Assembly (NCBI GenBank): GCA_015061665.1
Contig: SUWC01000001.1
Span: forward strand, 35,737-99,736
Origin: Lentisphaerota bacterium
GTDB lineage: Bacteria; Verrucomicrobiota; Kiritimatiellia; RFP12; UBA1067
Length of the DNA stretch: 64,000 bases
Reading direction: 5' to 3'
The position numbers and the translations under genes are program-made. This document shows positions 5,405-54,900 of this stretch, in pieces. Under the pieces are notes generated by a model, which did no database searches, was not told the DNA's origin, and saw only the letters and a list, made by a program, of their open reading frames with translations. Within the stretch, counting starts at the first letter, position 1, and each line of letters opens with the position of its first letter.

Positions 5405-5480
5405 GGCATGCTTGTCAACAGTGAAAATATAATATGATGTAAACAGTTATAGCAAAGTTATCAACAGAGTTTGTTAACAT
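5405..5480. promoter_or_regulatory. Divergent promoter region of mnmG and the downstream gene, with DnaA-box-like TTGTCAACA/TTATCAACA motifs
   Basis: TTGTCAACA at 5412-5420, TTATCAACA at 5458-5466 and TTTGTTAACA at 5470, in an AT-rich spacer. Confidence 0.35.
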
Positions 5481-5498
5481 GAAGACAACATTATTGAG

Positions 5499-14927: not shown

Positions 14928-14931
<4 letters not shown>
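13870..14931 (+). CDS. plsX: Phosphate acyltransferase PlsX
   Basis: [25 protein letters not shown]; 353 aa; conserved position after rpmF. Confidence 0.9.
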
Positions 14932-35423: not shown

Positions 35424-36797
35424 GTGGAAATAAAAGCCGAGATACAGCCATCGAAGTTAAGACGATGCAATGGTTGGGATTACCGCCAGCCTTGCATCTA
35501 TCAGATAACAATTGTTTTAGCCAATAGGAAAAGCCAGCTGCTGGGGCGGCTTGTGGTGGGGGAAGCTGCCGCGCCAGAGGGCAAATCAAGTCGTTCTGTG
35601 CTTGAAGCGGCAGCTTCAAGTTACACTTCTCTTTCCCCGGCGGGCGAGGCGGTAAAGGCCGAATTTTTCAAGATAGGCGAGCATCACCCTGAGATAAAGC
35701 CGCTTGAAATCATGGTTATGCCCGATCACTGCCATTTCATAATTCGCGTAATGCGGCCGATGGCCAAGCCGCTCGGCAACGCGATAGGCGGCTTCAAGGC
35801 CGGCAGCTCAAAGGCAGCAATCGGAAAGCCTGGCCTATGGGCAGATGGCTTTCAAGATACCATACTCTTTCACGAGGGCCAGCTCGCGGCGATGTTTACC
35901 TATTTGCGCGACAACCCACGAAGGCTGGCAGTTAAACGGCTGATGCCAGAGCTTTTCAGGGTAAGAAGGGGCTTGAAACTGCCGCTTCAAGTGGGAAGCA
36001 ACCACGAGCTGCCGCTCGTGGCACAGAACAAGAACCCCGAGCTGCCGCTCGTGGCACAGAACAACAACCCCGAGCTGCCGCTCGTGGCTGAGAGCAACTT
36101 GAAGCTGCCGCTCGTGGCACAGAACAAGAACAAGTCGGCTTTCTTGAGTTGCTCTGAGCCAAAGGCGGAAGCCTTTGGTTTCTTCACCGCCATCGGCAAC
36201 CACTTTCTTCTTAGAGCGCCAAGTATATTGCAGGTTCAGGTATCGCGGCGAGATTTTGCCTATAGGCGCGTGGCGAAGCCGGGCGGCGGGGTTAAGATAG
36301 AGCGCGATGACGCCGGCTGCCCTTTGGCGGCGGCGGCAACGCCAGCTTTCATCGAAAAGCGCGATGAGCTGATGGCAGCCGCTGAACATGGCGCCGTTTT
36401 GATAAGTCCCTGCATCAGCGACGGCGAAAGAGAAATCGCGAGGCTTGCTTTTTCGAAGGGCTTGAAGGTTGTCACCCTTTCGAACAAAGGCTTTTCACCG
36501 CTTTACAAGCCTGGCGGCAAGCTCTTTGATATGACAGCCAATGGCAATTTGCTTATGCTCGCGCCAATAAACTGGCCATATTGCCCAGGCGAGAAAAAGA
36601 TGACTCGCATCGACGCCTGCATACTCAACCGAATCGCCCAGTGGCTAGCCGGGAGCGGGGCTGCCAAGATCGACTACAAGGGCATGAAGCCCAATGACAT
36701 CGACCGCCTCGCTAGGAGCGCCATTTACCGGCACCAACTCGCCACTTCAGCTGCGATAGCGCCTGCGGCGCGAACCACGAAAACGCGGCTCATCTGA
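35424..36797 (+). CDS. REP-associated tyrosine transposase (RAYT; IS200/Y1 HuH) fused via an 11-aa tandem-repeat linker to a C-terminal domain of about 230 aa of unknown function
   Basis: Conserved RAYT blocks: ITIVLANRKSQLLGRL; the HuH motif MPDHCHFIIRV; LWADGFQDTILFHE; and the catalytic-Tyr motif TYLRDNPRRLAV (the Y-x-x-x-N-P helix). Then ELPLVAQNKNP x4-5. Then a C-terminal region (ISPCISDGEREIARLAFSKGLKVVTL...) with no recognised motif. Confidence 0.75.
   Translation: MEIKAEIQPSKLRRCNGWDYRQPCIYQITIVLANRKSQLLGRLVVGEAAAPEGKSSRSVLEAAASSYTSLSPAGEAVKAEFFKIGEHHPEIKPLEIMVMPDHCHFIIRVMRPMAKPLGNAIGGFKAGSSKAAIGKPGLWADGFQDTILFHEGQLAAMFTYLRDNPRRLAVKRLMPELFRVRRGLKLPLQVGSNHELPLVAQNKNPELPLVAQNNNPELPLVAESNLKLPLVAQNKNKSAFLSCSEPKAEAFGFFTAIGNHFLLRAPSILQVQVSRRDFAYRRVAKPGGGVKIERDDAGCPLAAAATPAFIEKRDELMAAAEHGAVLISPCISDGEREIARLAFSKGLKVVTLSNKGFSPLYKPGGKLFDMTANGNLLMLAPINWPYCPGEKKMTRIDACILNRIAQWLAGSGAAKIDYKGMKPNDIDRLARSAIYRHQLATSAAIAPAARTTKTRLI
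35974..36135 (+). repeat. 33-bp tandem repeat (4 copies plus a degenerate fifth) inside the RAYT-fusion ORF, each unit forming the hairpin CCACGAGC-TGCC-GCTCGTGG
   Basis: GAGCTGCCGCTCGTGGCACAGAACAAGAACCCC repeated at 36007, 36040, 36073 and 36106. In frame, encoding ELPLVAQNKNP. Confidence 0.85.
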
Positions 36798-37103: not shown

Positions 37104-40100
37104 GTGAAGATAGATAGCGCGAAAGCGACGCTGAAGCGGCTGATGACGGCCATCTTTGCGATGGTCGGCGTCAGCGTATGCGCTCGCGGTGCGGTCACGT
37201 ACCCCGTCACGGCCGAAGAAGCAGCCTCCTACGGCGGCGCAACCGGCGGCGACATCGTCAACATGATCGTCGAGGACGGCGGCAGCGTCTATCTCGCGCA
37301 CATCTTCACCAACACGGCCGCTTCGGCCACCCTTACGATTCCCTCCGCCAACAAAATCATGTCCGGCACTGGTCGCATCCTCCTCGTCGGAGGCGGCGGC
37401 GCGGGCGGCGGCGACTGCGGAGGAGGCGGTGGCGCGGGCGGCGTCGTGATCTCCAACAACTGGACCTTTGCCGAAGGCAGCATGACGGTCTCCGTCGGCG
37501 CTGGCGGCGCGTCGGCGGCGCGCGGGGACGCGGGCCACGACGGCTCGGCCACTACTCTCCTTCTCGGCGGCGTCACCTGGACGGCCCTGGGCGGCGGCGG
37601 CGGCGCTAAGTGCAACAATGTGGACGCTAAGAGCGGCGGCTCGGGCGGCGGCGGTGCGCGCAGCATGGCGAAGGGCAACGGACTTCAGCCCTCCCACGCC
37701 ACTACGCCCGGCTTCGGCAACGGCGGCGGCGCGGCAAACGACTACCGGGGCGGCGGAGGCGGCGGCGCGGGCAGCGCAGGCGCAAATGCCGTAGGCAATG
37801 TTTCCGGCAACGGCGGCGACGGCATTGAGTCGGACATCACCGGCGTTTCGAAGTGGTATGGCGGCGGCGGTGGCGGCGGCGGAAACGCCAGCGACCTTGC
37901 CGGACGCGGCTTCGGCGGCAAGGGCGGCGGTGGACACGGCTCCCTCAGCGGCAACTACTACGGCAGCCAGGGATATGCCCACGGCTGGAACGGCGAACCC
38001 GGCACCGGCGGTGGCGGCGGCGGCAGCGGCGGCGACTCCTCTGATGTCGCCAGCGGCGCGGGCGGAAGCGGCATTGCCGTTATCCGCTATCAGGTTGACC
38101 TCTCCGAAGGCGGCGACCCGCTGACGTCAGCGGACAAGGTGCGCGTTGCGCCGATTACCGCTGAAGAGGCTGTCGCGCTTGGCGGCGCGACGGGCGGCGA
38201 CCTGATAAGGAAGGTCCGCAACGACGACGGGACCTTTGACGTCGTCCACATCTTTACGAACACGGCTTCCGCGGCGGTTTTCGGCATTGGCGCGGTCAAT
38301 GGCGTCATAGCCGACTCTGGACGCTTCCTGGCGGTCGGCGGCGGCGGCGGCGGTGGCTCCACGGCTGGCGGCGGCGGCGGCGCGGGCGGCTTTGTCGCTG
38401 GCAATGTTACGCTTTCACAGGGACAGTATCAGGTAATCGTCGGCGCAGGCGGAGCGGGAGGCGCCAGCTCCAACGTCCGCAACCGCGGAACCGTCGGCTC
38501 TGACACAACGATCACGAACCTCACGACGTCCACCCAGATCGCGCTTGCACTTGGCGGCGGCGCGGGCGGTACGCTCGGCTCCACGCCTAACACCCACCGT
38601 CCTGGCGGCAACGGCGGTTCTGGCGGTGGAAGCGTGCGCGGCTATTCGACGTCGGAAGACGGCTCGTATTCCGGCAAGGCGTTGCAGCCCACAGAGGGCT
38701 ACCCTGCTGGTGGTTATGGATGCGATGGCGGGACTGGCAAGAACGACAATAACTACGGTGGCGGCGGCGGTGGCGCTGGCGGTGCCGGTGTTGGCGGCAC
38801 GGACTGCACGGGCGGCGCGGGTATGGAGTCCGACATACTTGGCTATGTGCAGATGTTTGCCGCAGGCGGCGATGGCGCGGCCAGGGGATACTATCCTGGC
38901 GCTGACGGCGAGGTCGCGACCGGCAACGGCGGTGGCGGCGGCGGTGGCAACGCGAACGCTGGCGCCGGCGGCGGAACCGGCGGCTCGGGCGTTGTAGTGA
39001 TCCGCTATACGATTCGCGGCGGAGAGATCAAGGAGATGGAGGACGGCTCCACGCTCTACAAGTTCGACGGCGACGCCATCTTCACGCTCGAAGGCGCAGC
39101 ACAGGTTCGTGTTCTCGCAGTCGGCGGCGGTGGCGCTGGTGCGTCTGGGGCAAAAGGCGCTGGTAGCCGTGGTGGAAATGGCGGTGGCGGCGCTGGTGGT
39201 TTTGTAGATGTAACGAATGTCTGGTCAGGTGCCTCGTATACTATAGCGGTAGGTGCAGGTGGTGTCACCGATTCCGTTACTGGATCAGATGCATCTAGCA
39301 GGAACGGCGGAGACACTGTTATTTCAACTTCCGGAAACGCTGTAATAACTGCCTTGGGCGGCGGCGGCGGCGGTGCATACGGCCCAGGCGCAGCCGGTGG
39401 ATCGGGCGGCGGCGGTTCGTGCTCTGACACATCGCCTTATGCTGCTGGTTTAGGAGGTACTGCATCACAGGGCTATGACGGCGGCATCGGCACACAGGCT
39501 ATTGGCCGTTCTGGTGCAGGCGGCGGTGGCGCAGGCGGTCCTGGTGCAAACACGGCAACAAACAACACTGGTGCTGATGGCGGTGCGGCCAAGGAAAGTG
39601 ACATTTCTGGAACAATTCAGTATTATGCTGCTGGTGGCGGCGGCGGTGCTCGTACAGGAACAGGCGGTAAAGGCGGTGCCGGTGCAGATAAAGTCGTTAT
39701 CGGCGGCACTGGTGGCGGCGATGCCACGACGGCCAAGGGCCTTGATGGCACCGGTTCCGGCGGTGGCGGCGGCAGCAACAGCTCCGTCGGTGGCGCTGGT
39801 GGCTCGGGTATCGTCTATATCCGCGTTATACGCTACATGCCGAAGACGCCTGAGCCCGAGTATATTTTCGAGTATGCGAACACCGAGTACGTCGTGTTCG
39901 AGCGCGAGGCTATCGACGAGGATGTGTTCACGATTACCACCGGGGACAATGTCTCCACCAACCGCATTGCGGCGACTGCGAAGGGCGTCTACACCTACAC
40001 TCTCGCCCTCACTGCTGATGCGCGTGCGAAGGGCTTCACGTGGTTCGACGGGACGACTGAGGACAAGCACGTCACGCTGACGATCTCAAAGACGATTTCC

Positions 40101-43100
40101 GAGATCTACTCCATCCACCAGTACGGCTGGCAGATCGGCGAGGAGCGTCCCCCGCTCCAGCTCGACATGAACCCCGAGGGCGTGCCCTACTTGACTCAGT
40201 TCGCCAATTCCGAGCTTGGCCCGTGGGCAACCAAGTCGTGGGACGACTTCGAGGAAGTGCCCGGCACCTACTGGCTGCGCATCGTAGTTGAGGAGAGCGA
40301 CAACTACACAGGCGTTACGAGCGATCCTGTAAGCTTCAAGGTCTGGGAGTATAATGCGACGAAGTATCCGACCTACCTCGGCTACCACAAGGACATCGTG
40401 GTCGACGCGACTACGTTTGCGGGTGTTACCGAGACGCTCACGGACTTCCCGATGCTCGTCAAGGTCTCCGAAGATCTCATCCCCGACTTCTACAAATACG
40501 CCGATTCGTCCGACGGCTACGAAGGCATCCGCTTCACCGTGCCTGGGCCCGACGGCGCAGCGGTTGAGGTCCCGTTCGAAGTCAACGAGTGGAACGAAGG
40601 CGGCGAATCCTCGTTCTGGGTGAAGGTTCCGTCCTTCGCTCCTGGCGCATACGCCGTCACGATCAACTACGGCGACATCGGCGGGGAGCTGCCCGAGAAC
40701 GATCCCTCGCAGGTGTGGAGCGACTACATAGCGGTCTGGCACCTTGACTCGGGGCACTATACCGAGGATGCGACCGGTCACGGCTATACGCTTTCGGGCG
40801 GCACAATGACGGCGGGCGCGGACTCCGTCTTCGGCTCGTCGACATACGCCAGCAACGGCACGCTCGTCGCAAAGGAATGGGAAGGCGACTATCCCTCCAG
40901 CGGCAGCAACTTCACCTACACCGCCTGGTACAAGGCGCAGGGATACAGCGGCAACATGAACTTTGCGGGCAGGAAGCCCCTGACGGGCTCGTACGATCCC
41001 GGCGGCTGGATGCTGAGGCTTGAAGAAAGCGTTTCTACAACCATACGATTCTATACCTCGACGAACTCCGCAGGAGCCTACTACACGATCAAGGACATCC
41101 CTGCGCTCAAAGACAACTGGGACTTCATCGCCATTGCATCCTCGGGAGTCAGGTTTGACGTTACAGTGAACGACGCCGTGAAGGCGTCGGAAACAAATCC
41201 TCAATACCTGATCTACAGCGGAGACACGCCCGATCAGCTCAATGTCATGACAAAGTTTATGGCGGCGGATGAAGTGCGCGTGACGGAGAAGGTCCGCAGC
41301 CAGGCGTGGCTCCTTGCGGAGTACCTGCAGGGCAAGCTTTCGTCCGAGAACCCCGGCATCGTCGTGGGCGACGAAACGTTCGTCACCCCCGGCGCGACGT
41401 TCTCCAACAAGTGGCTTGAGTACCCGACGATCAACCCGATTCGCTGGTTTGCGGGGCAGACGACGTCCATCAGCCTCGGCAGCGCGCTGTACGGCGAGGT
41501 GGAGTATGTCTTCAACGGTGCGGACGGTTCGGCGCTTACGAACGCCATTCCGACTACGGCAGGGTCGTACGACGTCGTGTTCTTTGTCAGGGAGATCGAT
41601 TCGGGAACCTGCACATACGCAGGACTTGTCTACGCCTATCCCGAAGTCATCGACATCCTTGTGAAGAACGACGGCACTGGCGGCCTTGGCGGCACGACTG
41701 GCTCGGCCACGCTCTCCGGCCGCGTCCTTCTCGCCAACGACGACGACCTCGCAGGCTTCGAGATCTCCGGGCAGTGCTACTGGCAGACTAACGAAACCGC
41801 CGACACCTACTGGGTGCACGAAGCCGAGTCGTCGGTGTTCCTGCTGAACATGATGGGGCAGGGCACGATCAATACGTTGATGTCCAAGGAACCTGTAGAC
41901 GAGCTATGCGGCGCGACCCGCATCTGGCATCTGGACAATGTCCGTATCGGCAACACTGAGTATGATGATTTGCAACCGTCGGACCGTATGTGCTATCTGC
42001 CGTGGTCAAGCACATCCAAGGTGCTTTCTGAGAATGGTAGCTATATAACGACAAAAACTGCTGCGAATTGTGCTCATCTTGCGATGCGTAGCGTTTCGGG
42101 CGCTGCTGTGTATTCGCCCTGCTATACGAACGGCATCGGCACGATCTACTTTGACGCCGTCAACGCGTGGACGGTGGACAACAACTATCCGACCAACTAC
42201 ACGATTGTCATTGAGTATGCGACGAACTGCGTTGAAAGCGTTGGATATGACAAGCTGCCAACGGACGCCAATCTAACCACTCTTATAGAAGTACTTGACG
42301 AAGAGGAGAACGTTGTCGATTCCTACAACGGCGTTGACTACGAGCGCGCCAACTGGCAGCCGATCGACATGGTTCCTCTCTACTACGACGGAAAAGATTT
42401 CCAAACCAGCTACTCCAAGACTTTTGGCGACGTCGTCAACTCGTTCGACGGACCTGTTTCGTCTCTCTGTCTCGACGAGACAGTTGGCGGAGGACGCGAC
42501 AGGTTCTTCCGCATCCGTGTCCCCGTCCTTGACGAGCTTGACGGCTACCGCGGGCCGATCCGCTTCAGGATCAAGCGTACGACGACCAAGGGTGTCGGCC
42601 TTGACAGTAACAACTTCATCCTTCTCGACAACCTTATCGTCTCGTATCCTGCGATGACGGCGAACCTTGAGCCGAGGGGCAAGTTCGATCCGACGCGCTA
42701 CGGAAAGAAGGCGCTTGGCACGGAGTGTGCGTTCGACGTTCCGTTCCCCGCAGTCGGCGATTCCATCAAGGGCCTTGCGAAGGGGAGCTTCGAGACGAAC
42801 CCGCTCGTCGTGGATGCGGATACTTCGACGTTCGTGACGGGCGCGAAGCTCCACTACCGCTGGCGCTACCTCAACCAGGATTTCGGTGAATGGGCCGCGG
42901 TCGCCGTTGCGCCGAACACGTGGGAGGCTGCAACCCCGCTCAACCTTTCCGACTACTCCGACCGCCCGGGCGACGTCGAGTACTGGTACGAGCTTCTGCA
43001 GAACGCGCCGTACTACTCGTACACCGACTACTCGGGACTCGGCATTGGTCTTGGCGGACTCTACAGCGAGAACATCCCCGTCGTCACCAACCGCTGCGAC

Positions 43101-46100
43101 ATGGGCACGCTCGAGAGCTGCGGCACTGACTGGTTCGTGCGTCTGCGCGAGGGGAAGAGTCCCTACGAATCGCTTCAGATCGCGATCGACGACGGCAGCA
43201 AGACTAACATCGTCTACATGGAAGTCGTCAAGGACCACACGTGGCGCGGGTACTTGCAGACGTTCACCAACCAGGCCGGCACCGTCAGGATGCAGGTTCG
43301 CGGAGTCAACTGCCAGACGTTCGGCTCGGGCGAGTTCGTCGAAAGCGTCACCAACATGTACAGCGTCGCGGCGCTTACTAACATGCCGGTAAGCACGACC
43401 ATGGAGCTTGGCACGGAGGACGACTGGAACGACCTCGACATCGACGCGATGACGGGCTACCTCATGTTCCAGGTCGACGACTCCACGAGGTCGCTCACGA
43501 TCGTGCACGCTGACTACCAGTCGTTCAACGAGTGGAACGACGCGAAGGGCTCGAAGTTCGTCGGCAACTCGACCGACAACCTCACCAAGAGCGGAACGGC
43601 CGCGGGCAAGAAGAAGTATGTCGGCGACTGGAGCGCTTGGACGAGCATGGGCGCGGGGTCCGACGACTGGACGGTACCGTACGTCGGCTGGGCCGACCTA
43701 ACCCACATGCTGGGCCGTGAGCCGAACGTGGAGTTCCAGAGCGACACGTCGGGCAACTGGCAGGTCGGCCCCGGCATCTGGGTCTCGAAGTGGTACGACG
43801 ACTCGCGCAACAACATGGGCGTCGCGCTTCAGATGGCGGGCCAGGGACGCGGCTACGTGCAGATGACCGACTCCAACATCCTCCCGCGTGGCTTCGGGAC
43901 GCTCAGCTTCAACGCGCGCCTCGCGCAGACAATCGGATTCGAGGACTTCGTCTACTACGAGGGCGTGACGCCCAAGTCGCTTACGAACTACACCTTCGTG
44001 GCGCGCGGCGCGTTCGACACATCGAACAACACTGCGTTCCGCGGCAAGGCGTCGCTCTCGCTCGTCGCGCACTACCGTCCGAAGATCGGCTGCTACGAAT
44101 TCCGCGTCGAGCAGGTCCAGGCGAACAACAACACAAACCCCTCCGGCATCAACAACAGGAGCCAGCGCTTCAGCCTCTACCGCTGGAGGGTCGGGGACGA
44201 CGGGACGATTGAGCCGACGCTTCTCGGAAGCTACATGAACGACTCGTTCAACATTCCCAACACGTCCGGCTCCACCGGCACCTACATGCCGCTCTACATT
44301 TCCGTCTCGAACGACGTCAGCGGCGCGGTCTGCATTATGGCTGGCGTTTGCAGAGAAGGTGTTTCGGCCTCGAGCAACACGGGCACCGAGAGCGGGAAGA
44401 ACTTCTATTCGCTCTGCTACAAGGACACTTCGTCCTACAAGATCACGTCTGGAACGTACGGCTGCCTCTCGGCGAACTGCCCGGCTAAAATGATTCGTCC
44501 GTTCCACTACGACAAGCCGGTTCCATTCCTCAACGCGGGGCCTGCGGCAAACACGATCGACAGGTACTCCAACAACGCCATAACGTTCCCTGGAACAAAG
44601 CAAGACTGCTACGCCGAGCTTCTTACGACAGACCTTGAGGACCTGACGTGGGCCACGACCCCAGGCCGCTTCGTCAACTTCGCCGACAGCGGATCGGTCT
44701 ACGGCTTCACTGCGCCGACTACGGCCGTTACGCAGAAGCTGATCGTCTACACGGTTCCGGTTTCGGAAGTCTCGAGCGCCACGGCATCCAAGGACTGGAA
44801 GTGGACCGCGGTCACGAACATCGTCGTAAGCGGCTTCGGCTCGAACGGAAAGCTGACGGCGTACAACGTCCCGCTCTACGTTGCCGAGGACAGCTACATC
44901 AAGATCGCGGTCGACGGCAAGCCGACGGATACGAGGCGCGACGTCGTTATCGACTCGCTGACGGTTACGGCGTGGCGCGGAGCTAGCTGGAACGAGGACA
45001 TAGACGACCTCATCACGTACGCCCCCAACAACTTCGAGCCGTCCGAGATCAGGTGCAACTTCAACGAGTTCTCGTTCTTCGACGCGTGGGTGACGAACAT
45101 CACCGTTACCGGCAACACCAAGACGAACGCGCTTCTCCTTTCCGCGCGCAGGACGCCTGCGGGCGGGGTGTGCGGCATCAAGTCGCCGCTTATGAACGGC
45201 GAGCCGCTCGGCAGCGACAAGGGCAGCCGCGGCATTGGCCTGGGCATGGTCTCGTTCAGCTACCGCAACGCGCAGCCTAACGTCAACCTGCTCGTCCAGA
45301 TCGCGACGAACGGCGTCGGCTCGGCCAACATGGCGACGATCAACAACTTGAGCGAAGACAACTGGGTCACGTGGACGAACGTCAGCTTCAGCGCCGGCAG
45401 CGGGCGCCCGTCGTCCGGCGTCGCCAGCGTCTACCTCGGCCTCCACGGCGTCGAGGGCGCGCTTCGCGTCATCATGGACCCGGCTGTCGTCAACGCGGTG
45501 TCGAAGCAGCTCAACCCGAGCCTCTTCGGCGACATTTTCATCACCGGCATCAAGTGCACTGACGAGCCGGAGCTCGACGACTCGAGCTGGTGGGGCTGGA
45601 ACCTGCGCGGAGTCGGCATATCCTCCGCCAGCGGCTCAGACGAGGAGAACCGCATGTACCTTCCCGACATGACGCAGAGCGCGGACGAACTTGGCATGAG
45701 CATGGCGCTCAACAACTCCGTTAGCGTCGACACCTACGACGAAGACTCCGAGACGTACAAGGCGAACATGCCGTTCGTGCAGACTCCGGTCTTCGGCACG
45801 AACCTCGTCGGCGAGATCATGTTCCGCGCGAGGAAGTACGGGTACAGCGACGCGGCGACCGATGCGCAGGATGCGTACGTCACGCTTCTTGGCGCGAAGG
45901 AGGACGCGCCCGAGAAGTTCACAGAAATCACGAACTTCTGCGTCAACGCGAAGACGTTCAAGACGTACAGCTACAAGACGGAGCCAGGCGTCGACTACGC
46001 GGCGTTCAGGCTTGCGGTAAGCGGCGTTGACGGAGTCGACAGGGCGGGCATCTGGCCCGGTTCGGGCAGCCCGGTCCGCGTCATCCTCGACGAGGTCCTC

Positions 46101-48497
46101 GTAACGGAGGCCGTCCGCGCCAAGATGGGCTTCAGGAACGTCGGCGCGTTCAGGGGCTATCCGGGCACGCGCAACTTCATCATGAACGACCTTCTCATAG
46201 TCCCGAACGTCCCAAGCGAGCAGGAGCAGCCGCTCTGCAACGAGACGTGGGGCGTGCAGTGCGAGATATACAAGGAGCTTCTCCCAGACGAGATCGACCT
46301 TGGGAGGACGCCGAACGTCCGCCTGCACTACTTCGAGGGCAAGCTGCCCTGGGGCTGGAACAACTGGAAGACGAAGGAGAGCGCGAAGACGGTCAGGCTG
46401 ACGCTGGCGACTGACTCCACTGAGGACAACCTCGTCTACCGTTCGAGCAACAAGTCGCTTCCCGCGAACGTGATCGCGCCTATCGCGACGTCGGGCGTCA
46501 CGTACCAGTACATGCTCGAGGTCGAGTTCTGGCAGGTCGGCAGCACGGTTCCTTCGACGAACTGGCTTACGTCCGCGCAGTGGACGAAGCCGGAGTGGTA
46601 CAACCAGATCGACTTCAACGCGGAGGGCGGCGCTTTCTCGGCGTACACGATCCTCGACACTGTCGCCCCGCACTGGGCGTGGATCAACGAGGTGAACCTC
46701 TTCGACGAGTACGACATGGACCTCCAGAACAGCGAGGTCTCCAACCAGTACATCGAAGTCGCGGTTCCCGCCGAGGCGGACATCTCGGGCTGGAAGATCA
46801 AGATGCTCGAGGCTGTCGGCGGGCATGGCGAAGTCGTGACGAACACGCTTGCGGTATTCGGCGAGAACGGGCTTTCGGGCACGAAGCCGGGCCTGCTCGG
46901 GATGGACGCGAACAAGGTCTACCGCGTGATCGCGACGCCGAAGGTGTCGTCGCAGTACCTCAGGAAGAGCGACGGAACGCTTGACGGAACGTGGCAGGTC
47001 CAGATACCGACGTCGACGATATCGGCGGCGGGCGAGATCCTCGGCATCCAGCCGTTCGGGCTCCAGCTTGTCCGCGCGAGCGACATCGTCGAGCACGAGA
47101 TCGTGTGCATTGGAACGAACTGGTGGGGCAACTCCGTGAACTACGGCGGGTCGTACCATCCGACGAACACGGTGAACACGCTCAACAAGAGCGTGAAGGG
47201 CGCGAACTTCTTCTACGTCGGCGCGGACGAAGGCGGCGACGGCAGGTCGGTCGACGTGTTCAAGGAACGCGGCGAGACGGTCGATTCGTGGACGAACCGC
47301 TGGGTGAAGACGCCTGGTCGCATCAACACGGACGAGAACGGCAAGAAGCAGGACATCGACCCGAACCATCCGACGCCGAACGGCGACACGATCATCGTCT
47401 ACTGCAACCTCGACACGACTATGGGCGAGAGGCTGACGCAGACGGCGGGCGACGTCGTCGATTCGCCGCGCAACGAGATACAGTACCTCGTGAAGGGCAG
47501 CGAACTCGGCCTGACGATCAGGTACAAGGCGGCGCCGTGGTTCAAGCTCGAGTCCGTCACGACGAACATGGTCGGCTCGGCCGTCTCGACCGAGATTCCG
47601 TTCACGACGATATCCGAGGCGGAGCGCCTTTACGAGACGGTCGTCGGCATCGGGGCGTCCAACAACTTCTCGGTCGTCGCGAAGCCGAACGTTCAGGACA
47701 AGCTCAGGGAGCTCGGGCTTGGCGACGACAACCGCTATACCGACGCGGTGGTCGACTGGCTCTCCGGCGGACGCACCCTGAAGGGCGAGTTCGCGAACGA
47801 CGACGGCGAGATCAGGCTTGCGGAGTACAGGGGGCTGAACGGCAGCTTCATAACGAACCTCACGCTGACGTCGATGTACTGGCTCGACATGGACCCGACG
47901 GCCGGCGGCCTTGCGCTGTACGGCGGCATGTCGTCCGCCCCGACGCCTCGCACGTACGAGTACTTCGACGGCTACATGATCGACGAGACCGGCGCGGAGG
48001 TTGCGAACTACAGCAGCTTCACGAACCTGCGCATGAACGTGAAGATGTGGATCACGAACGAGAACGACAACACCGCGTGGGCGCCTTACACGCTGCGCGG
48101 CGTGAGGCCCGGCGAGACGACGGTCGGCTCGAAGTTCTCGCTCAAGCAGTGGGCGGCGGACACGAACGTAACGTTCAAGATCACGGGCCTTCTCGGCAAC
48201 GGCCTAGTCAGTTCGAGCGACAGGAATGCGTGGGTGCCGCTTAGGTGGTTCGTCTTCAGGTGCGACGACGACTTCGTCAGCACGTCGTTCGACGAGAACT
48301 TCGAGACGAAGATCGAGATCGACGACCCCTACACGCCCGCGTCGCCGGGCTACGCGGCGTGGCGCCGCTGGTTCGAGCTGCACGGCGGAAAGTTCGGCCA
48401 GGGCTGCAACCTGTTCTATTTCTGGTCGCTTGACGACGTAACGAAACCGATTGGATTCGAGATGCTCGAGAAGGAGAACTACTATGAGTACGAGTAA
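37104..48497 (+). CDS. Giant secreted/cell-surface protein (3797 aa) with triplicated N-terminal glycine-rich module
   Basis: GTG start; signal-peptide-like MKIDSAKATLKRLMTAIFAMVGVSVCA. Three modules of about 300 aa, each with V-x-AEEA-x-GGATGGD...HIFTNTAS, then LLVGGGGAGGG...GGGGAGG-V...VSVGAGGA, ending GGSG(I/V)xxIRY. The remaining 2800 aa or so are Thr/Asn/Gly/Tyr/Trp-rich and beta-strand-like. Confidence 0.85.
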   Translation: MKIDSAKATLKRLMTAIFAMVGVSVCARGAVTYPVTAEEAASYGGATGGDIVNMIVEDGGSVYLAHIFTNTAASATLTIPSANKIMSGTGRILLVGGGGAGGGDCGGGGGAGGVVISNNWTFAEGSMTVSVGAGGASAARGDAGHDGSATTLLLGGVTWTALGGGGGAKCNNVDAKSGGSGGGGARSMAKGNGLQPSHATTPGFGNGGGAANDYRGGGGGGAGSAGANAVGNVSGNGGDGIESDITGVSKWYGGGGGGGGNASDLAGRGFGGKGGGGHGSLSGNYYGSQGYAHGWNGEPGTGGGGGGSGGDSSDVASGAGGSGIAVIRYQVDLSEGGDPLTSADKVRVAPITAEEAVALGGATGGDLIRKVRNDDGTFDVVHIFTNTASAAVFGIGAVNGVIADSGRFLAVGGGGGGGSTAGGGGGAGGFVAGNVTLSQGQYQVIVGAGGAGGASSNVRNRGTVGSDTTITNLTTSTQIALALGGGAGGTLGSTPNTHRPGGNGGSGGGSVRGYSTSEDGSYSGKALQPTEGYPAGGYGCDGGTGKNDNNYGGGGGGAGGAGVGGTDCTGGAGMESDILGYVQMFAAGGDGAARGYYPGADGEVATGNGGGGGGGNANAGAGGGTGGSGVVVIRYTIRGGEIKEMEDGSTLYKFDGDAIFTLEGAAQVRVLAVGGGGAGASGAKGAGSRGGNGGGGAGGFVDVTNVWSGASYTIAVGAGGVTDSVTGSDASSRNGGDTVISTSGNAVITALGGGGGGAYGPGAAGGSGGGGSCSDTSPYAAGLGGTASQGYDGGIGTQAIGRSGAGGGGAGGPGANTATNNTGADGGAAKESDISGTIQYYAAGGGGGARTGTGGKGGAGADKVVIGGTGGGDATTAKGLDGTGSGGGGGSNSSVGGAGGSGIVYIRVIRYMPKTPEPEYIFEYANTEYVVFEREAIDEDVFTITTGDNVSTNRIAATAKGVYTYTLALTADARAKGFTWFDGTTEDKHVTLTISKTISEIYSIHQYGWQIGEERPPLQLDMNPEGVPYLTQFANSELGPWATKSWDDFEEVPGTYWLRIVVEESDNYTGVTSDPVSFKVWEYNATKYPTYLGYHKDIVVDATTFAGVTETLTDFPMLVKVSEDLIPDFYKYADSSDGYEGIRFTVPGPDGAAVEVPFEVNEWNEGGESSFWVKVPSFAPGAYAVTINYGDIGGELPENDPSQVWSDYIAVWHLDSGHYTEDATGHGYTLSGGTMTAGADSVFGSSTYASNGTLVAKEWEGDYPSSGSNFTYTAWYKAQGYSGNMNFAGRKPLTGSYDPGGWMLRLEESVSTTIRFYTSTNSAGAYYTIKDIPALKDNWDFIAIASSGVRFDVTVNDAVKASETNPQYLIYSGDTPDQLNVMTKFMAADEVRVTEKVRSQAWLLAEYLQGKLSSENPGIVVGDETFVTPGATFSNKWLEYPTINPIRWFAGQTTSISLGSALYGEVEYVFNGADGSALTNAIPTTAGSYDVVFFVREIDSGTCTYAGLVYAYPEVIDILVKNDGTGGLGGTTGSATLSGRVLLANDDDLAGFEISGQCYWQTNETADTYWVHEAESSVFLLNMMGQGTINTLMSKEPVDELCGATRIWHLDNVRIGNTEYDDLQPSDRMCYLPWSSTSKVLSENGSYITTKTAANCAHLAMRSVSGAAVYSPCYTNGIGTIYFDAVNAWTVDNNYPTNYTIVIEYATNCVESVGYDKLPTDANLTTLIEVLDEEENVVDSYNGVDYERANWQPIDMVPLYYDGKDFQTSYSKTFGDVVNSFDGPVSSLCLDETVGGGRDRFFRIRVPVLDELDGYRGPIRFRIKRTTTKGVGLDSNNFILLDNLIVSYPAMTANLEPRGKFDPTRYGKKALGTECAFDVPFPAVGDSIKGLAKGSFETNPLVVDADTSTFVTGAKLHYRWRYLNQDFGEWAAVAVAPNTWEAATPLNLSDYSDRPGDVEYWYELLQNAPYYSYTDYSGLGIGLGGLYSENIPVVTNRCDMGTLESCGTDWFVRLREGKSPYESLQIAIDDGSKTNIVYMEVVKDHTWRGYLQTFTNQAGTVRMQVRGVNCQTFGSGEFVESVTNMYSVAALTNMPVSTTMELGTEDDWNDLDIDAMTGYLMFQVDDSTRSLTIVHADYQSFNEWNDAKGSKFVGNSTDNLTKSGTAAGKKKYVGDWSAWTSMGAGSDDWTVPYVGWADLTHMLGREPNVEFQSDTSGNWQVGPGIWVSKWYDDSRNNMGVALQMAGQGRGYVQMTDSNILPRGFGTLSFNARLAQTIGFEDFVYYEGVTPKSLTNYTFVARGAFDTSNNTAFRGKASLSLVAHYRPKIGCYEFRVEQVQANNNTNPSGINNRSQRFSLYRWRVGDDGTIEPTLLGSYMNDSFNIPNTSGSTGTYMPLYISVSNDVSGAVCIMAGVCREGVSASSNTGTESGKNFYSLCYKDTSSYKITSGTYGCLSANCPAKMIRPFHYDKPVPFLNAGPAANTIDRYSNNAITFPGTKQDCYAELLTTDLEDLTWATTPGRFVNFADSGSVYGFTAPTTAVTQKLIVYTVPVSEVSSATASKDWKWTAVTNIVVSGFGSNGKLTAYNVPLYVAEDSYIKIAVDGKPTDTRRDVVIDSLTVTAWRGASWNEDIDDLITYAPNNFEPSEIRCNFNEFSFFDAWVTNITVTGNTKTNALLLSARRTPAGGVCGIKSPLMNGEPLGSDKGSRGIGLGMVSFSYRNAQPNVNLLVQIATNGVGSANMATINNLSEDNWVTWTNVSFSAGSGRPSSGVASVYLGLHGVEGALRVIMDPAVVNAVSKQLNPSLFGDIFITGIKCTDEPELDDSSWWGWNLRGVGISSASGSDEENRMYLPDMTQSADELGMSMALNNSVSVDTYDEDSETYKANMPFVQTPVFGTNLVGEIMFRARKYGYSDAATDAQDAYVTLLGAKEDAPEKFTEITNFCVNAKTFKTYSYKTEPGVDYAAFRLAVSGVDGVDRAGIWPGSGSPVRVILDEVLVTEAVRAKMGFRNVGAFRGYPGTRNFIMNDLLIVPNVPSEQEQPLCNETWGVQCEIYKELLPDEIDLGRTPNVRLHYFEGKLPWGWNNWKTKESAKTVRLTLATDSTEDNLVYRSSNKSLPANVIAPIATSGVTYQYMLEVEFWQVGSTVPSTNWLTSAQWTKPEWYNQIDFNAEGGAFSAYTILDTVAPHWAWINEVNLFDEYDMDLQNSEVSNQYIEVAVPAEADISGWKIKMLEAVGGHGEVVTNTLAVFGENGLSGTKPGLLGMDANKVYRVIATPKVSSQYLRKSDGTLDGTWQVQIPTSTISAAGEILGIQPFGLQLVRASDIVEHEIVCIGTNWWGNSVNYGGSYHPTNTVNTLNKSVKGANFFYVGADEGGDGRSVDVFKERGETVDSWTNRWVKTPGRINTDENGKKQDIDPNHPTPNGDTIIVYCNLDTTMGERLTQTAGDVVDSPRNEIQYLVKGSELGLTIRYKAAPWFKLESVTTNMVGSAVSTEIPFTTISEAERLYETVVGIGASNNFSVVAKPNVQDKLRELGLGDDNRYTDAVVDWLSGGRTLKGEFANDDGEIRLAEYRGLNGSFITNLTLTSMYWLDMDPTAGGLALYGGMSSAPTPRTYEYFDGYMIDETGAEVANYSSFTNLRMNVKMWITNENDNTAWAPYTLRGVRPGETTVGSKFSLKQWAADTNVTFKITGLLGNGLVSSSDRNAWVPLRWFVFRCDDDFVSTSFDENFETKIEIDDPYTPASPGYAAWRRWFELHGGKFGQGCNLFYFWSLDDVTKPIGFEMLEKENYYEYE

Positions 48498-48930
48498 AGG
48501 CAGACGCATAAGGCAGTCTGCCGGACTGCTTACGCTCGCCGCGGCGGTCGCCCTTGGACTGGGCGGCTGCTCCGGCGGCTGTTCGCGCGAGGAGAAGCCG
48601 GAGGTCCCCGGCGCGGTCGATCCTGCGAAGGCGAGTTCGTTCGCCGACCGGATGCACGACCCCGAGTACCTCAAGGCGCTCAAGGCGTCCGAAGAGGGCA
48701 TGCGCGCGATCATGAAGCGGACTGTAGAGCTTCAGAAGGCGCTCGAGGCGGCGAAGGCGGAGAACCCGGACTCTCCCGAGGTCAAGCGCCTTCAGGCCGA
48801 GCTCGACAAGTGCGCGGCGGAGCTCGAGGCCAACAGGCAGCAGGCCCAGCAGGTCGTGCGCGACCGTCTGCACAAGGCCCGCGCCGAGCAGGAGAAATTT
48901 GTTGAAGAACAACAGAGGAAGGGGAACTGA
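48484..48930 (+). CDS. Small lipoprotein with long coiled coil (possible periplasmic chaperone-like partner of the megaproteins)
   Basis: MSTSKGRRIRQSAGLLTLAAAVALGLGGCSGGCS gives a lipobox; the remainder is a heptad-like K/E/A/Q-rich helix. Overlaps the 3' end of the upstream giant ORF by 14 nt. Track ORF starts at 48451 in the same frame. Confidence 0.65.
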   Translation: MSTSKGRRIRQSAGLLTLAAAVALGLGGCSGGCSREEKPEVPGAVDPAKASSFADRMHDPEYLKALKASEEGMRAIMKRTVELQKALEAAKAENPDSPEVKRLQAELDKCAAELEANRQQAQQVVRDRLHKARAEQEKFVEEQQRKGN

Positions 48931-48933
48931 TTT

Positions 48934-51900
48934 ATGAAAGCGAAAATACTAAAGACACTGGCCCTCGCATTCGGCCTTGCGACAGCGTCGCTCGGCTTTG
49001 CAGGGGATATCTACGAAATACGTCCCTGCGACGAGTTCGGCGCCGCCAAGACATACGACCTGTCGCTGGCGAATCCTGCGGGTTCAGGCGAGAACCTCTA
49101 CTTCCTCATTCGCCTGAACAACAGGTACGACACCGCGACGTCGTCGTACGTCCCGTGGAAGCTGAACTACAAGGGCCTGTCGTCGGCATCGACCGCAGTG
49201 CGTCCGCAGATCGGCATCTACGTTTCGGGGCGTCCGTACTTCGCGACGATGGAGCAGGACCCGAAGGCGAAGAGCGACGCCTTCACGGACCTCATCTTCA
49301 AGTACACGACGCAGCCGGGCGACTTCGCGCTTCCGATCCGCCTTGCCACGTCGGCAGGTCCTGCTGACATCAAGCAGGGCGACGGCAACGAGTACGCGTG
49401 GTACGGCCTGACGACGGACAACTGGTCGTTGACGACCGGCGAGGGCGCGTCTGCGGAGGAGGTCACTCTTTCGTTCGGCAATCCCGCGCAGCCCGTGGCG
49501 GCTCCCGACGGGGCAAGGATCGCCGACTACACGCTTGAGCAGGCGCAGTTCTTCGTCCAGACGATTTTCTTCGACACCAAGTGGGAATCCGACGACGGCT
49601 CCGCCTGGCGCTATGTCCACCAGGATTCCAACATCACGTCGAACTACACTCCCAGCGTCGTCCTTCCCGCGGCCTCGACCGAGGCGCGCACGCTCTACGT
49701 GTGGTCGATGAACGACGAAGCCGTCTACGTCAAGGGCGGAACCGAGAAGAGCATGAAGCACCCCGACGGCGAGACGCGCCTGACGAAGGTCGGCACGCTC
49801 ACAATCCCCGGCGGCGCGACGTCCGTCAGCTTCGATTCCTGCGGACTTGACCTCTGGGGCGTGGCCGAGGGCGAATCGGCGCAGCTCGTCCTTTCCGCTT
49901 TCGACGAGTACTACACCTCCAGCGCCGACGGCACGATCGTCGAGGACTTCATCACAGTTCCGGTCAAGTGCGTCGAGCCCATGCCCGCGACGGTCGCCGT
50001 CACGGTCGATCCCGAGACGGCCAGGGCCAACAGCGCGAGCCACCTGAACCGCGCTGCGACTCTCACGGTCTACCTCACCCAGCCGCTTGAACAGGACATC
50101 GACGTCACGATCACGCCCGACATCGCGGGCCAGACGCTCGACATGACCAAGTATGTCAAGATGTCCACTTCCGCCACGAGTGTCAAGACCATCAACGCGC
50201 TCAGCGACACGGTCACGGTCACGCTTCCCAAGAACACCTCGGGCGCCGCGAACGGCGTTCCCGTTTACGTCTACACCCTCCGCGCCGACGAGTTCACGTC
50301 AGGCGGCTCCACGATTGACTTCATTCCGTCCGTCTCCGCCGAGGACATCGCGGCGACGGGCCTTTCGCCCGACGCTTTCCAGGTTGCCGCGCTCGAAGTC
50401 GTTGCGGATCCCACCGTCATCGTTGCGCCTTCGGCAGGCAGCGAGATAGGTGCAACGTCCGGCGTCGAGAAGGAAATCGAGATCGAGCTTGCCGACACGT
50501 ATGCGCACACGCAGCTCGTTCCGGGAACGGACAGCGGCTACACGATCCAGTTCAAGCAGAACGACGCCAGCACGTGGGTTGACCTTGCCGGTGAATACTA
50601 CATCGGGGCTGGCAACGTTCTGCGCGACGCAGACGGAAAGCTTCCCAAGATCAGGTATACGACTTCCTCTGTCGGCAGGACGACTGGCGACACGTTCAAC
50701 TCGTCCTTCCGCATCATCGAGCCGATCAACAACGGCAAGGTGGAGGTGTCCGTCCTTGCGACGGTCCAGGCTCCCAAGACGGTCATACTCGGAACCGACC
50801 GCAAGACGTACGACGAAGGCGATACGGGAGAGTTCTCGATCGCGCTCAACGAGCCGAACGACACGGGCGCCTCGCTGTGGGCCTATGTGGTTGCGGTCAA
50901 TGACGGCGCCAAGAAGGGCGACTTCAGGGCCGAGGGCTATGATTTCGTCATTACCTCCGACATGACGGACACTGAGAAGGCGGCTGCGACCGGCCTTGAG
51001 ATTCCCGCCGACACGACGGCTGTTTCTGGCGACGTCACGTTCCTCGACGGTGGATACAACGGGAGCAAGTTCTACTTCAAGGTAGTACTCTGCACGACTG
51101 CCAACTACGACGAGAGCGCCATCGTCTCCGGATACAACTGCGAGCAGACGAACGTGACGGTCAACAACGTTGAGCCGACAATTGCTCGCGTCGAGCTCAA
51201 CAACGAGCCGCCGGACGACACCGGCACGTATCCCAGCACGTATCCCGTCGGAATCGAGCAGACGCTCACCGTCAAGGTGAACGATCCTGGCCAGTACGAC
51301 CTCACGGCGACCGAGGAGGCTGACAAGTTCCGCGTCAAGTGGACGGTCAAGCGCACGGGCGGCGCGGCGTACATTCAGGAGCTGACGGGCAATCCCGACG
51401 ACATGGAGCTCAAGTACGCATTCCCGGCTGCGGGTACGTACACGATCACTGTCCAGGTCCAGGACAAGGACATGCGCGACTGGGCTGAGCTCAAGAGCGA
51501 GACATACGTCGTCATCATCGACCAGCCGCAGCTCACGGTCACGCTTCCCAACGAAGGCGTCTTCTTCGAGAACGAGAAGCGCGTCCAGATCAAGGTCGGC
51601 CTTGGCGGATACTTCGCCTCTACCGAGCCGATCGTCGTCATGGTGAAGGTGAACTCGCTCGCCGCGGCGGGCGCGCCCAACCCCGGCAAGTTCAAGCTCG
51701 ACTCCGCGCTTCTCACGGCCCCCGCTGGCTATGAGGCATACGCGGCGGCCGACACCTACTTCCTCACCTTCAACTCCGCCGATGCGCTTGACGTCTACGT
51801 CGAGGAGATGGACGGTACCGACGATTCGTCCGGCAAGGGCTTCCTGATCGTCGCGTCGGTCCTCAACGACAGCGTGTCCACCGATCCGACCAAGACCTGG

Positions 51901-54900
51901 GCCGAGTACTACAAGACGAACAACCGCGCGGTTGCGTACGTCGAGAACGCCGAGCCCGTCGTGACGGCTCCGGAGGAGAACGGAACGAACTACTGGACGA
52001 CGGCCAAGACGATTAGCTGGAGCATCAAGGGCACGGGCGACATTCCCGCGGACTTCGCGGGCATCGCGGCCTTCCCCGGCATCCGCGTCCAGTTGACGGG
52101 CGACCTGACGAACCCCGTCGACGAGTACATCACGGAGGGCAAGTCCTACTCCGTGACGCCCGACTTCGGAACGGGCACGGGCAGGCTTGACGTCTACCTC
52201 ACCGTAACCGACAAGGACGGCGGCGAGTTCACCCGCGTCTACAGCTACAACATGCCCGCCACGAAGACCCTGACTACGAATGCGACGGGTCCCGGCAGCG
52301 GCAACGGCAAGATACCGGTCTCCCAGACGTACGCAGCGGCGGACGGCCTCGGCGCGGGCCATGTCTATGTCCTCGGCACGGGCGTCGAGCCTCTTGCCGC
52401 CAACAGCTGGACGGTTGACTGGAACTGCAAGAACCTCAACACGGTCAACATCTACGCGTACGGCTACAAGGTCGGCGCGATCGAGGACGGAACGCTCGAC
52501 GCGGGTCGCGACATCGCGATGAATCCGTGGGGCGGACTCTGGACGACGGGCGACTGGTACACGTACGTCGACGGACAGAACCGCGACAGCTTCCCCTATG
52601 CCTGGATTCTCGCGGGCGGCAGCTCCGGCGGCGAGGAGGCGTCCTACGTGGCGTACGTCGCGCCCAAGTACGGCGCCGACGTCGCGCAGATTTCGCCGTT
52701 CAGCCTCCCGACGCAGACTCTCGAGGACGGCAGCGGCTATCCCGTGAGCTACGTCGAGGCCGTCTTCGCGAGGGAATGGCGCGCGGGCGACAACATGGGC
52801 GACATCAACGGCGACGGAGTGCCTGACTACTTCGCGCTCGCCAAGGCGTACAAGGGCGGCTACCTCGCCACTGCGGACGGCCTTGGGTCCGAACTCCCCG
52901 GCATCAACAACCTCAACGACGACGCCGACTTCTACCCGATCGCGCGTCTGATCGGAGCGGACAAGCTCGTTCCGAATCCGACGAGCCAGTGGAGCCGCGT
53001 CGACATCGGCCAGCCGTTCACGACGAGGCTTGAGATCCGCGGCTTCCACGACGGACTCAACTACGGCATGTTCAAGGTCGATGCGCGCGAGGCGTCCGAC
53101 GGCTGGGTCTCCGACCTCGATCTGAGCGTTCCCGAAAAGCTCGCGCTCGTCAGGCACGCGGAGGCGACCGGAGGCGAACTCGCCGAGGCGCTCCTCGGGA
53201 CGTACAACGCGGACGACGTCGAGAACTGGCTCACGACGGACGACCAGCAGGAGGCGGCCAAGAGGTACATCGACTCCACCTGGGCCAACTACAAGGCGGG
53301 CGATGCCACGACCTGGGGCTTCACGGTCGAGAACCGCACCGATCCCACGGTCGCGGATACCGACGGCGACGGCATGGCCGACGGCTACGAGTACTACTTC
53401 TGGTATGCGGCCACGGTCGGCTTCGACGCGGCGAAGGGTCCGGTCAAGGGCATGCGCTTCACGCTTAACCCCGCGACGTTCGAGACGGGCGTCGAGATTC
53501 CGAGCGAGGAGATCGCCCTCATCTTCAACCCGAACGTCGTCATCGACTGGACCAAGCAGGATACCGACAACGACGGACTCTACGACTGGGAGGAAATGCT
53601 CATCGGCACGAGCCCGATCTTCTGGGATACTGACGGCGACGGCACGAGCGACTTCTACGAGACATACTTCAACATCAACCCGATCGCGGCCGACAACGAC
53701 AGCGTCAACGGAAACATGAACCTCGACGGAGACTTCATGGCCAAGGCGAAGGTCGGAACGAAGAGGGATACCGGTGCTACGATCCCGATCATCGACACAG
53801 GCTATTTCTGGCTCTACACCGCGACCGACGGCACTATGTGGGCGTTCGAGGACCTTCTCGCGCTCGACACGACGGAGGAGTCCGCTCAGGTGACGGCCGT
53901 TGCGTTCCAGGTTGCGCCCTTCAACGGCGGATACATTCCGACGACGGAGAACACGAGGCCGAATAACCTGTTCCGCACGCGGACTGTTGAGGTCAACACG
54001 ACCGTCCAGCCTGTTGGCTCGACAGTCGACCTCTACCACCACCAGGTCTACCGCTTCTGGGGATTCGACCCGCGCACGGGCTGGTACAGGAACAACCAGG
54101 GTCTCGTGAACGGACGCTGGATCAAGAGCGGAACCGCCGGCACTGCGGTCAACACAGTCGACTACACCGCCCGCGACGAATTCAGGCTTCTTGAATACCG
54201 CTACATCGTCGGTCTCAGAAGCTACCAGGCCGATGAGGCGGACATTGCGGCCGACAAGAACACGATCGCCGGAATCGTCGCCTCGGCTACGACGAATCCG
54301 AACACGCCCTTCGACGGCAGGGTCTGGGGCGACTACTCCGACAAGCCCTACGGCCAGGCGCAGCACGGCGCCGATACTGACGGCGACGGCGTGCCGGACG
54401 GCTGGGAACTCTACGTCGGCGTGAACCCGAACATCAAGTGGACGATTCCCGCAGGCCCTGGCTGCGACGTCCTCTACCGCACGTCGACCACGTACAACGA
54501 CGGAACGCCCCGTCCTTACCTGGCGACCACGGATGCCGACAGGGACACGTACGACAGCGACAAGCTCTCCACTCTCGTCGCCGAGTACGCGGGCACCGAC
54601 TCCTGCGGCTGCTACGAGGCCTGCGATACGATCTACGCCAACCACCCGAGCAAGGCGGACGGCTGCATGTACCGCTGGTACAACAAGTTCTTCCCGACGG
54701 ATCCACGTGACCCCGACACCGACGGCGACACGGTTATCGACGGCGAGGAAGGCGCGAAGTGGACGACTGGCTTTGTGTTCAACAGGTGGGGCCAGAACGG
54801 CACCAAGAGGACCAACCACTTCACCGTCTACGGCCTGCCGCACGACAACGGCGGCATCTGCATCCCCGGCGGCGGCATGAGCCCGACGACGATCGATACC

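Follow-up and report, generated by a model that had tools for sequence, protein, structure and literature searches.

Tail fibre protein gp24 of the cyanophage Pam3 is a TNF-like sandwich whose GGGGxGG-bearing loops stack into a lattice; its glycine stem is conserved, its distal tip is hypervariable and has been proposed to recognize the host receptor, its TNF-like domain and the glycine-rich one are together described as responsible for this recognition, and the likeness of the fold to ALK has been pointed out (PMC9608196). Polyglycine-rich domains have also been described from mycobacteriophages, where they may contact lipids (PMC13252515, a preprint), and giant modular surface proteins are discussed as adhesion and cell-interaction proteins (bioRxiv 10.1101/2023.11.21.568195; PMC12057145). 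Here we analyze a cellular gene, hereafter giant gene A, whose 3797-residue product carries three phage-type glycine-rich modules in tandem near its N-terminus. It occupies positions 37104..48497 (forward strand) of a 64,000-nucleotide window, by which we mean the whole stretch of DNA analyzed, from a Lentisphaerota bacterium assigned to the Kiritimatiellia (contig SUWC01000001.1, positions 35,737 to 99,736); all coordinates below are those of the window. We put at roughly 55% the probability that its product serves a host-associated Kiritimatiellia/Lentisphaerae bacterium as a modular binding protein exported by the Sec route.

The glycine content of the protein, taken per 100 residues, is 29-42% over aa 101-900 as against 4-15% elsewhere, and a scan of the whole protein against Pfam assigned a sole family, Gly_rich_2 (PF21722), in three stretches (E 7.5e-45; 154.1 bits vs a cut-off of 24.3 bits). 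The corresponding modules lie at aa ~31-330 (37194..38093, +; best Pfam stretch aa 76-330), aa ~347-636 (38142..39011, +) and aa ~640-912 (39021..39839, +), the last ending in GIVYIRVIRYMPKTP. Modules 2 and 3 share 49% and 44% identity, respectively, with module 1, in agreement with the initial annotation, which was made from the sequence alone and had proposed a triplicated glycine-rich module of about 300 residues; with the Gly-Gly columns excluded the pairwise identity of the three is 21-28%. The signatures which that annotation had listed for all three modules proved to be of two kinds. A glycine core, VGGGG...GGGGAGG, VGAGG and GGSG-I/V-x-x-IR, is common to all (GGGGAGG is found at aa 96, 107, 423, 554, 693 and 806), whereas AEEA (aa 37/353), GGATGGD (aa 44/360) and HIFTNTA (aa 66/382) are seen in modules 1 and 2 only, module 3 sharing just the core. 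A comparison of non-glycine identity yielded the same division: modules 1 and 2 cluster with the first modules of homologous proteins (subtype A), and module 3 clusters with their body-proximal modules (subtype B), showing 37-40% non-glycine identity to modules of the homologues P0001 and P0002. The layout is A-A-B in giant A and A-B in the two-module homologues that we examined. Subtype A is marked by an N-terminal element of the form V-T-AEEA-x3-GGATGGD-I/L-V (37194-37260 and 38142-38210; aa ~33-55 and ~349-371), which forms a strand and a short helix in the model of module 1. A weak likeness of this element to the UBA domain of TNK1 (PDB 7tcy; E 1.2) is probably due to chance and was set aside.

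An alignment of 14 modules revealed that nearly all invariant columns are glycines and that the loops between them vary, which fits the description of Pam3 gp24. The initial annotation had suggested predicting the structure of one module, and an AlphaFold2 model of module 1 based on this alignment is confident, with a predicted local distance difference test (pLDDT) score of 89 and a predicted TM-score (pTM) of 0.90. In a Foldseek search of the PDB with this model all 25 best matches were Bxb1, Pam3 or ALK/LTK: a tail-tip protein of mycobacteriophage Bxb1 (9d93, E 6.6e-6) and the Pam3 tail fibre (7ypx, E 9.5e-6) were both matched with a probability of 1.0, followed by ALK/LTK (E 3e-4 to 3e-2), in the ligand-binding region that combines TNF-like and glycine-rich parts. 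Against BFVD the same model recovered 217 viral matches at E <= 1e-3 (TM-scores up to 0.75; identity 30-38%) from cyanophages, uncultured tailed phages, a halovirus and prasinoviruses, nearly all of the named ones being called "glycine-rich domain-containing protein". The modules further match PHROG 2295, a family of unknown function, with E 1e-41, and a search of the module profile against PDB sequences gave nothing significant. Thus, on the sequence score, the fold and the GGGGxGG motif alike, the modules belong to PF21722, and from the structural matches each is predicted to be a TNF-like sandwich continued by a glycine-rich lattice. By sequence giant A is not a member of the ALK family, as the ALK/LTK glycine-rich family PF12810 had no match at E <= 0.1 in the Pfam scan. 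The earlier suggestion that the modules resemble glycine-rich domains of phage tail fibres and giant viruses, and not RTX, Big or cadherin repeats, is therefore supported: domain searches placed the modules in none of these adhesin families, and Pfam and NCBIfam scans of the entire protein detected no RTX, Big or cadherin repeats. We also considered a LapA- or BapA-type RTX adhesin exported by a type I secretion system (T1SS), or a Big/cadherin adhesin, and rejected both in view of the lack of such matches, the Sec-type N-terminus and the few repeats in the body.

These modules are far from rare, contrary to the expectation of the initial annotation that the protein would be poorly represented in characterized families. 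A homology query with a single module returned at least 11 matches, and a search of the module profile against 1.84 billion cluster representatives recovered 34,567 of them at E <= 0.001 and 21,841 at E <= 1e-10. Near the top of this list are many giant proteins with 4-19 matched stretches, such as those of 5009, 6381 and 5282 aa with 10, 14 and 19 stretches, respectively; in three giants that we scanned, Pfam confirmed 6-8 copies of Gly_rich_2, two of these (P0058 and P0063) also containing Peptidase_S74, a tail-fibre chaperone domain, and one LamG_3. Set against giants that reach 19 matched stretches, a megaprotein with three modules is nothing unusual. With a Pfam family and solved structures, for which receptor binding has been proposed or ligand binding shown, the glycine-rich module is an ordinary, catalogued and abundant domain.

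The uninterrupted gene of 3797 codons claimed for 37104..48497 (+) is borne out. From a GTG start, upstream of which a purine-rich AAAGGAA can be read directly from the sequence, the frame is stop-free throughout 11.4 kb up to the stop codon included in these coordinates, and 49 related loci that contain the start of the open reading frame (ORF) encode proteins of 2246-3871 aa, relatives of similar length having the same architecture. The uninterrupted ORFs of these 49 loci argue against a frameshift artefact. At the DNA level only short GGC-rich repeats occur across the gene and long near-identical copies are absent; hence, the triplication appears to be old and is unlikely to have arisen in assembly. 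Exact look-ups of the protein in a protein collection, with V, M14 and M1 as starts, gave no match. Long ORFs on the opposite strand of giant gene A (40086-41819, 42273-43508, 43698-45446 and 45636-47369, -; 411-582 aa) and of a second giant gene described below, giant gene B (50299-61041, -; 3580 aa), are most likely not genes but shadow ORFs that arise opposite GC-rich coding sequence.

The first 31 residues of giant A (VKIDSAKATLKRLMTAIFAMVGVSVCARGAV) hold the sole strongly hydrophobic segment of the protein, with a hydrophobic stretch at aa 8-31 (KRLMTAIFAMVGVSVCARG) resembling a Sec signal peptide. The region of aa 1-29 is the only one with a mean hydropathy above 1.55, and the hydropathy scan revealed no membrane-spanning candidates besides this N-terminal segment. 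The predicted signal peptide (37104..37190, +) would be cleaved after residue 29, between VSVCARG and AV, and homologues have similar signal-like N-termini, for example SLNARG followed by VV in P0005. The export postulated in the initial annotation is plausible in light of this N-terminus. Its net charge of ~-159 makes the protein acidic, and its mass is about 400 kDa.

C-terminal to the modules is a body (aa ~910-3797) that includes a lectin-like unit, overlooked previously, composed of a DUF2341-like stretch at aa ~1140-1194 (40521..40685, +; sub-threshold at 16 bits vs a 23.4-bit cut-off) and a LamG_3 or concanavalin-A-like lectin domain at aa ~1267-1376 (40902..41231, +; E 2.6e-6, 28.1 bits vs a 27.6-bit cut-off). 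LamG_3 is just above its cut-off in giant A and strongly matched in several relatives, and DUF2341 is detected at E <= 0.1 in five of eight family members. A segment-by-segment scan of the body against Pfam gave nothing besides these marginal and sub-threshold matches, and a whole-family profile found nothing significant among PDB sequences, the only match being a weak one to the LamG-like region of pappalysin. The middle of the body (aa 1500-2632; 41601..44999, +) is conserved and has neither a Pfam family nor a PDB sequence match, the best E obtained with a 55-sequence profile being 0.1. The C-terminal part (aa 2633-3797; 45000..48494, +) is almost wholly beta in an AlphaFold2 model built from a 37-sequence alignment (pLDDT 81) and is predicted to be a chain of beta-sandwiches or jelly-rolls. 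At the level of single domains, Foldseek matched it to reelin repeats, MAM domains, the ligand-binding domain of ephrin receptors, the carbohydrate-binding module (CBM) families CBM6, CBM32 and CBM51, Bacteroides surface glycan-binding protein SGBP-B, gpJ of phage lambda and XepA, all as jelly-roll or galactose-binding-like sandwiches; those of reelin, MAM, the ephrin receptors, the CBMs and SGBP-B bind ligands or carbohydrates. No catalytic family was found in eight full-length relatives or in 37 C-terminal regions of the family.

The statement in the initial annotation that the residues outside the modules contain no obvious known repeats holds in that hhalign between body segments gave almost no internal repeats, only two weak similarities with probabilities of about 59-61%, on which grounds we dropped the idea of a regular repeat array; it fails to account for LamG_3 and the sub-threshold DUF2341. 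Identity of the body across homologues is 28-51%, and the family alignment has many invariant W, R and G columns, including the invariant motifs WAWINEVN and MYWLDMDPT in the C-terminal part. The invariant series WAWINEVN...IEVAVP...SGW (aa ~3190-3330) might be likened to a lamin tail domain (LTD, PF00932), a likeness that is unsupported for giant A: PF00932 has no match in it and was detected in one of the 37 C-terminal regions with E 0.004. The unannotated part proper is the 2300-residue body, which is predicted to have familiar folds and has no family assignment; this body, the LamG/DUF2341 unit and a conserved three-gene cassette were all missed in the initial annotation.

A search with the body only yielded at least seven homologues with 28-47% identity, and a scan across one genome per species identified the body family in 79 loci. 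Most of these are labelled as gut or rumen metagenome-assembled genomes (MAGs) of Kiritimatiellia/Kiritimatiellae, many others are labelled only as Verrucomicrobia, Lentisphaerae or "uncultured bacterium", and a few are bins with unrelated names; the hosts named in the record titles are yak, sheep, goat, cattle, roe deer, horse and human. The family is thus restricted mostly to MAGs labelled as Kiritimatiellia, and no relatives of the body were found in 2.9 million viral contigs. Two separate family loci, L012 and L031, come from one MAG (CAMORM01, SRR873601_bin.173), and some genomes may carry two copies of the cassette. The N-terminal region of the family varies: among the 49 loci that contain the ORF start, 19 members have no glycine-rich module, 17 have one, 12 have two and one has three. 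Of six module-free members that we scanned, five have LamG_3/DUF2341 units in their first 1000 residues and the sixth has no Pfam match there. Given module counts of 0-3 and the prevalence of LamG_3/DUF2341 in module-free members, the N-terminus behaves as an exchangeable head on a conserved body. In six loci (L015, L016, L029, L046, L048 and L075) a shorter family ORF has another ORF, of ~800-970 aa, immediately upstream of it or in slight overlap with it, the upstream one of L015 having a match to the Listeria-Bacteroides repeat; in such loci the head may be a separate gene, or the ORF may have been split by a frameshift.

Giant gene A is followed by a small lipoprotein gene (48484..48930, +; ~148 aa), which overlaps its end by 14 nucleotides and has the lipobox LGLGGC, and by giant gene B (48934..61494, +; 4186 aa). 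The charged Ala/Glu/Lys-rich tail of the lipoprotein reads by eye as a coiled coil, and the lipoprotein shares LGGCSGGCSRE with a 134-aa gene of locus L001. When 54 loci were screened for a lipobox, 38 had a candidate ORF between the giants, and about 34 of these look genuine. The order of giant A, lipoprotein and giant B is found in L001 and most loci, and the cassette is conserved. Giant B has a signal peptide, LamG_3 and TSP3_bac domains and sub-threshold Ig-like and PKD matches, and is named "LamG domain-containing protein" at NCBI (MBE6381448.1); we found no homology between it and giant A. Its TSP3_bac units are calcium-binding repeats, and there is a weak match (21.6 bits vs a 400-bit cut-off) to CglD, a gliding adhesin, in its TSP3 region. 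The cassette is flanked by housekeeping genes, with ackA and pta downstream and plsX, leuS, dnaA and mnmG upstream, and the window also encodes enzymes of glycoside hydrolase (GH) families 28 and 127. There are no phage genes near giant gene A, all the neighbours scanned being housekeeping genes or genes without a Pfam match.

Taken together, these observations favour a Sec-exported modular binding protein, which would be a plausible adhesin assembled from known parts and not a new kind of system. The head would consist of the A-A-B series of Gly_rich_2 modules following the signal peptide and of the DUF2341/LamG lectin-like unit, and the stalk of about 2300 residues of divergent jelly-roll sandwiches that are constant across the family. 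As the head is exchangeable and the stalk constant, our proposal is that a surface ligand, be it a glycan, a lipid or another cell, is bound by the head, which the stalk holds at a distance from the cell; the co-encoded lipoprotein and giant B are probable, or at least possible, partners in this. Passage across the outer membrane and a location on the surface would be implied by this proposal, as would a ligand and contacts with these partners. Several points weigh against it. Its main weakness is the missing anchor or secretion signal beyond Sec: Pfam and NCBIfam scans found no autotransporter barrel, T1SS signal, sorting motif or peptidoglycan-binding domain, and since no feature for outer-membrane translocation or anchoring was seen the protein could stay periplasmic or be released. 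Hence, the initial annotation went beyond the available features in calling it a likely major surface or adhesive structure. The TM-scores of module 1 are modest (0.41-0.55 to the phage proteins, 0.2-0.25 to ALK). Glycine-rich domains of phage tail fibres act as trimers at the fibre tip, whereas those of giant A are in tandem in one chain and might therefore act differently. The segment of aa 1500-2632 matches nothing by sequence and may have an enzymatic or other activity. A core structural role would likewise suit a gene that many species have beside housekeeping genes.

Such a role, in which giant A would be a core component of the cell envelope that forms a surface layer, a periplasmic scaffold or the like with giant B and the lipoprotein, the glycine-rich modules being building blocks and not ligand binders, is unlikely but deserves to be taken seriously. 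It would agree with the conservation of the three-gene cassette over 79 loci, its location amid housekeeping genes near dnaA, a lipoprotein that could tether the assembly to the membrane and the lack of a recognized surface-anchor or secretion signal beyond Sec. Yet a head that ranges from 0 to 3 modules, and gives way to lectin-like domains in most of the module-free members scanned, shows a pattern more often associated with specificity determinants than with the subunits of a lattice. Among solved structures the modules are closest to phage tail proteins with an implied part in host recognition and to the region by which ALK/LTK bind their ligand, and among the matches the family is absent from non-gut Kiritimatiellia. 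We hold it to be more doubtful still that the cassette represents an undescribed surface apparatus of host-associated Kiritimatiellia, with a stalk of 2900 residues displaying interchangeable receptor-binding heads; the bacterium would use these, as 0-3 phage-type glycine-rich modules or LamG/DUF2341 units, to take hold of particular partner cells, of glycans of the host or of particles, and the cassette would then do for a cell what a tail fibre with exchangeable tips would do for a phage. There is only a slender chance that giant A is a secreted polysaccharide-processing protein or scaffold akin to a cellulosome or multi-CBM enzyme, with its sandwiches serving as CBMs and a novel catalytic domain in the uncharacterized aa 1500-2632. 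The LamG/concanavalin-A-like domain, the C-terminal matches to CBM6, CBM32, CBM51, xylanase-CBM, alginate lyase-CBM and SGBP-B, and the GH28 and GH127 genes in the window are compatible with such a function, but neither the eight full-length members nor the 37 C-terminal regions gave a match to any family of glycoside hydrolases, lyases or esterases, the folds matched by structure are binding folds and the TM-scores low, and no catalytic motif was identified.

The likeness of the modules to PHROG 2295 and to phage tail proteins, and the presence of Peptidase_S74 in other multi-copy Gly_rich_2 giants, raise the question of whether giant A could be a tail fibre gene of a prophage, a tailocin or another phage-derived element residing in the chromosome. 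We consider this very improbable, as the surrounding genes scanned are housekeeping genes or lack Pfam matches and none is of phage type, the 2900-residue body has no PHROG match and no relative in the 2.9 million viral contigs, the protein has a predicted Sec signal peptide, and Pfam detected neither Peptidase_S74 nor a tail-fibre attachment domain in it. We accordingly rejected identification as a phage tail fibre on the basis of its cellular context (plsX, leuS, ackA, pta and the GH genes) and the lack of attachment or chaperone elements. Lastly, the origin of the window from a MAG and the failure of the exact protein to appear in the protein collection under the starts tried might suggest that there is no real single gene here but a product of misassembly or of a frameshift error, or else a pseudogene in decay. 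The chance of this is minimal: the frame is open across 11.4 kb, comparable uninterrupted ORFs exist in 49 related loci, the protein is strongly conserved over its whole length, there are no long DNA repeats able to mislead assembly, and the predicted models of both module 1 and the C-terminal body are confident.

A few features of the remaining window may be noted. Just upstream of giant gene A is an ORF of 457 aa (35424-36797, +) without a Pfam match, which contains the tandem peptide repeat ELPLVAQN(K/N)NP. It is preceded by a gene (33248-34984, +), situated in a stretch of lower G+C content (0.53-0.54) upstream of the giants, for a protein of 578 aa that clearly has a signal peptide and matches no Pfam family (NCBI hypothetical protein MBE6381444.1). 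The G+C content of positions 1-6000, which hold dnaA (1233-2681, -) and mnmG/gidA (3041-5281, -), is 0.42-0.46 vs about 0.6 in the remainder of the window; the difference could reflect either the base composition of the origin region or a place at which the MAG was joined chimerically. The MnmG/GidA ORF encodes 745 aa with the GIDA Pfam match split into two stretches, and given that a typical MnmG has about 620-630 aa the protein may contain an insertion. When leuS is read as its longest ORF (from 14688), about 240 nucleotides of it lie over the end of plsX (13870-14931); the gene probably starts further downstream.

The Kiritimatiellia of gut and rumen are uncultured and ecologically important, and the pair of giant genes documented here is conserved in them and had hitherto gone unannotated. 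With its variable head on a constant body, giant A is a concrete candidate for a determinant of attachment specificity in these bacteria, and the ~2300 residues without a family assignment are a target for structural annotation.

In comparison with other members of PF21722, which are known from bacteria, tailed phages and large algal viruses, the modules of giant A have the same core (VGGGG / GGGGAGG / VGAGG / GGSG-IVIIRY); giant A differs in being a cellular protein of 3797 residues, with a predicted signal peptide and three tandem copies of the domain at its N-terminus, and in the N-terminal strand-helix element (AEEA..GGATGGD) added in subtype A. Its best solved matches, Pam3 gp24 (7ypx/7yfw) and the Bxb1 tail tip (9d93, chains Qa/Qb), share the passage from TNF-like sandwich to glycine-rich lattice and the GGGGxGG motif, but they are proteins of 230-280 aa, Pam3 gp24 forming trimers that are attached to the virion; giant A lacks a phage context, has no trimerizing helix or chaperone and places three modules in series. 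ALK and LTK (7mzy, 7nx0, 7ls0, 7lir) contain the same TNF-like sandwich and glycine-rich lattice, there used to bind ligand; with 14-18% identity and a TM-score of about 0.2-0.25 to the module of giant A, they are single-copy animal receptor kinases. The giant surface proteins rich in LamG, Ig and CBM domains that occur in the Planctomycetes-Verrucomicrobia-Chlamydiae (PVC) group and other bacteria resemble giant A in their length of several thousand residues, their export, their sandwich- or lectin-like folds and the pairing with a second giant gene. Unlike these, giant A has an almost repeat-free body, constituting a family of its own, with no RTX, cadherin or Big domains, no T1SS signal and no transmembrane helices. 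The best-supported analogy for giant A would thus be with the tip of a phage tail fibre, or the ligand-binding domain of ALK, set on a giant bacterial surface protein.

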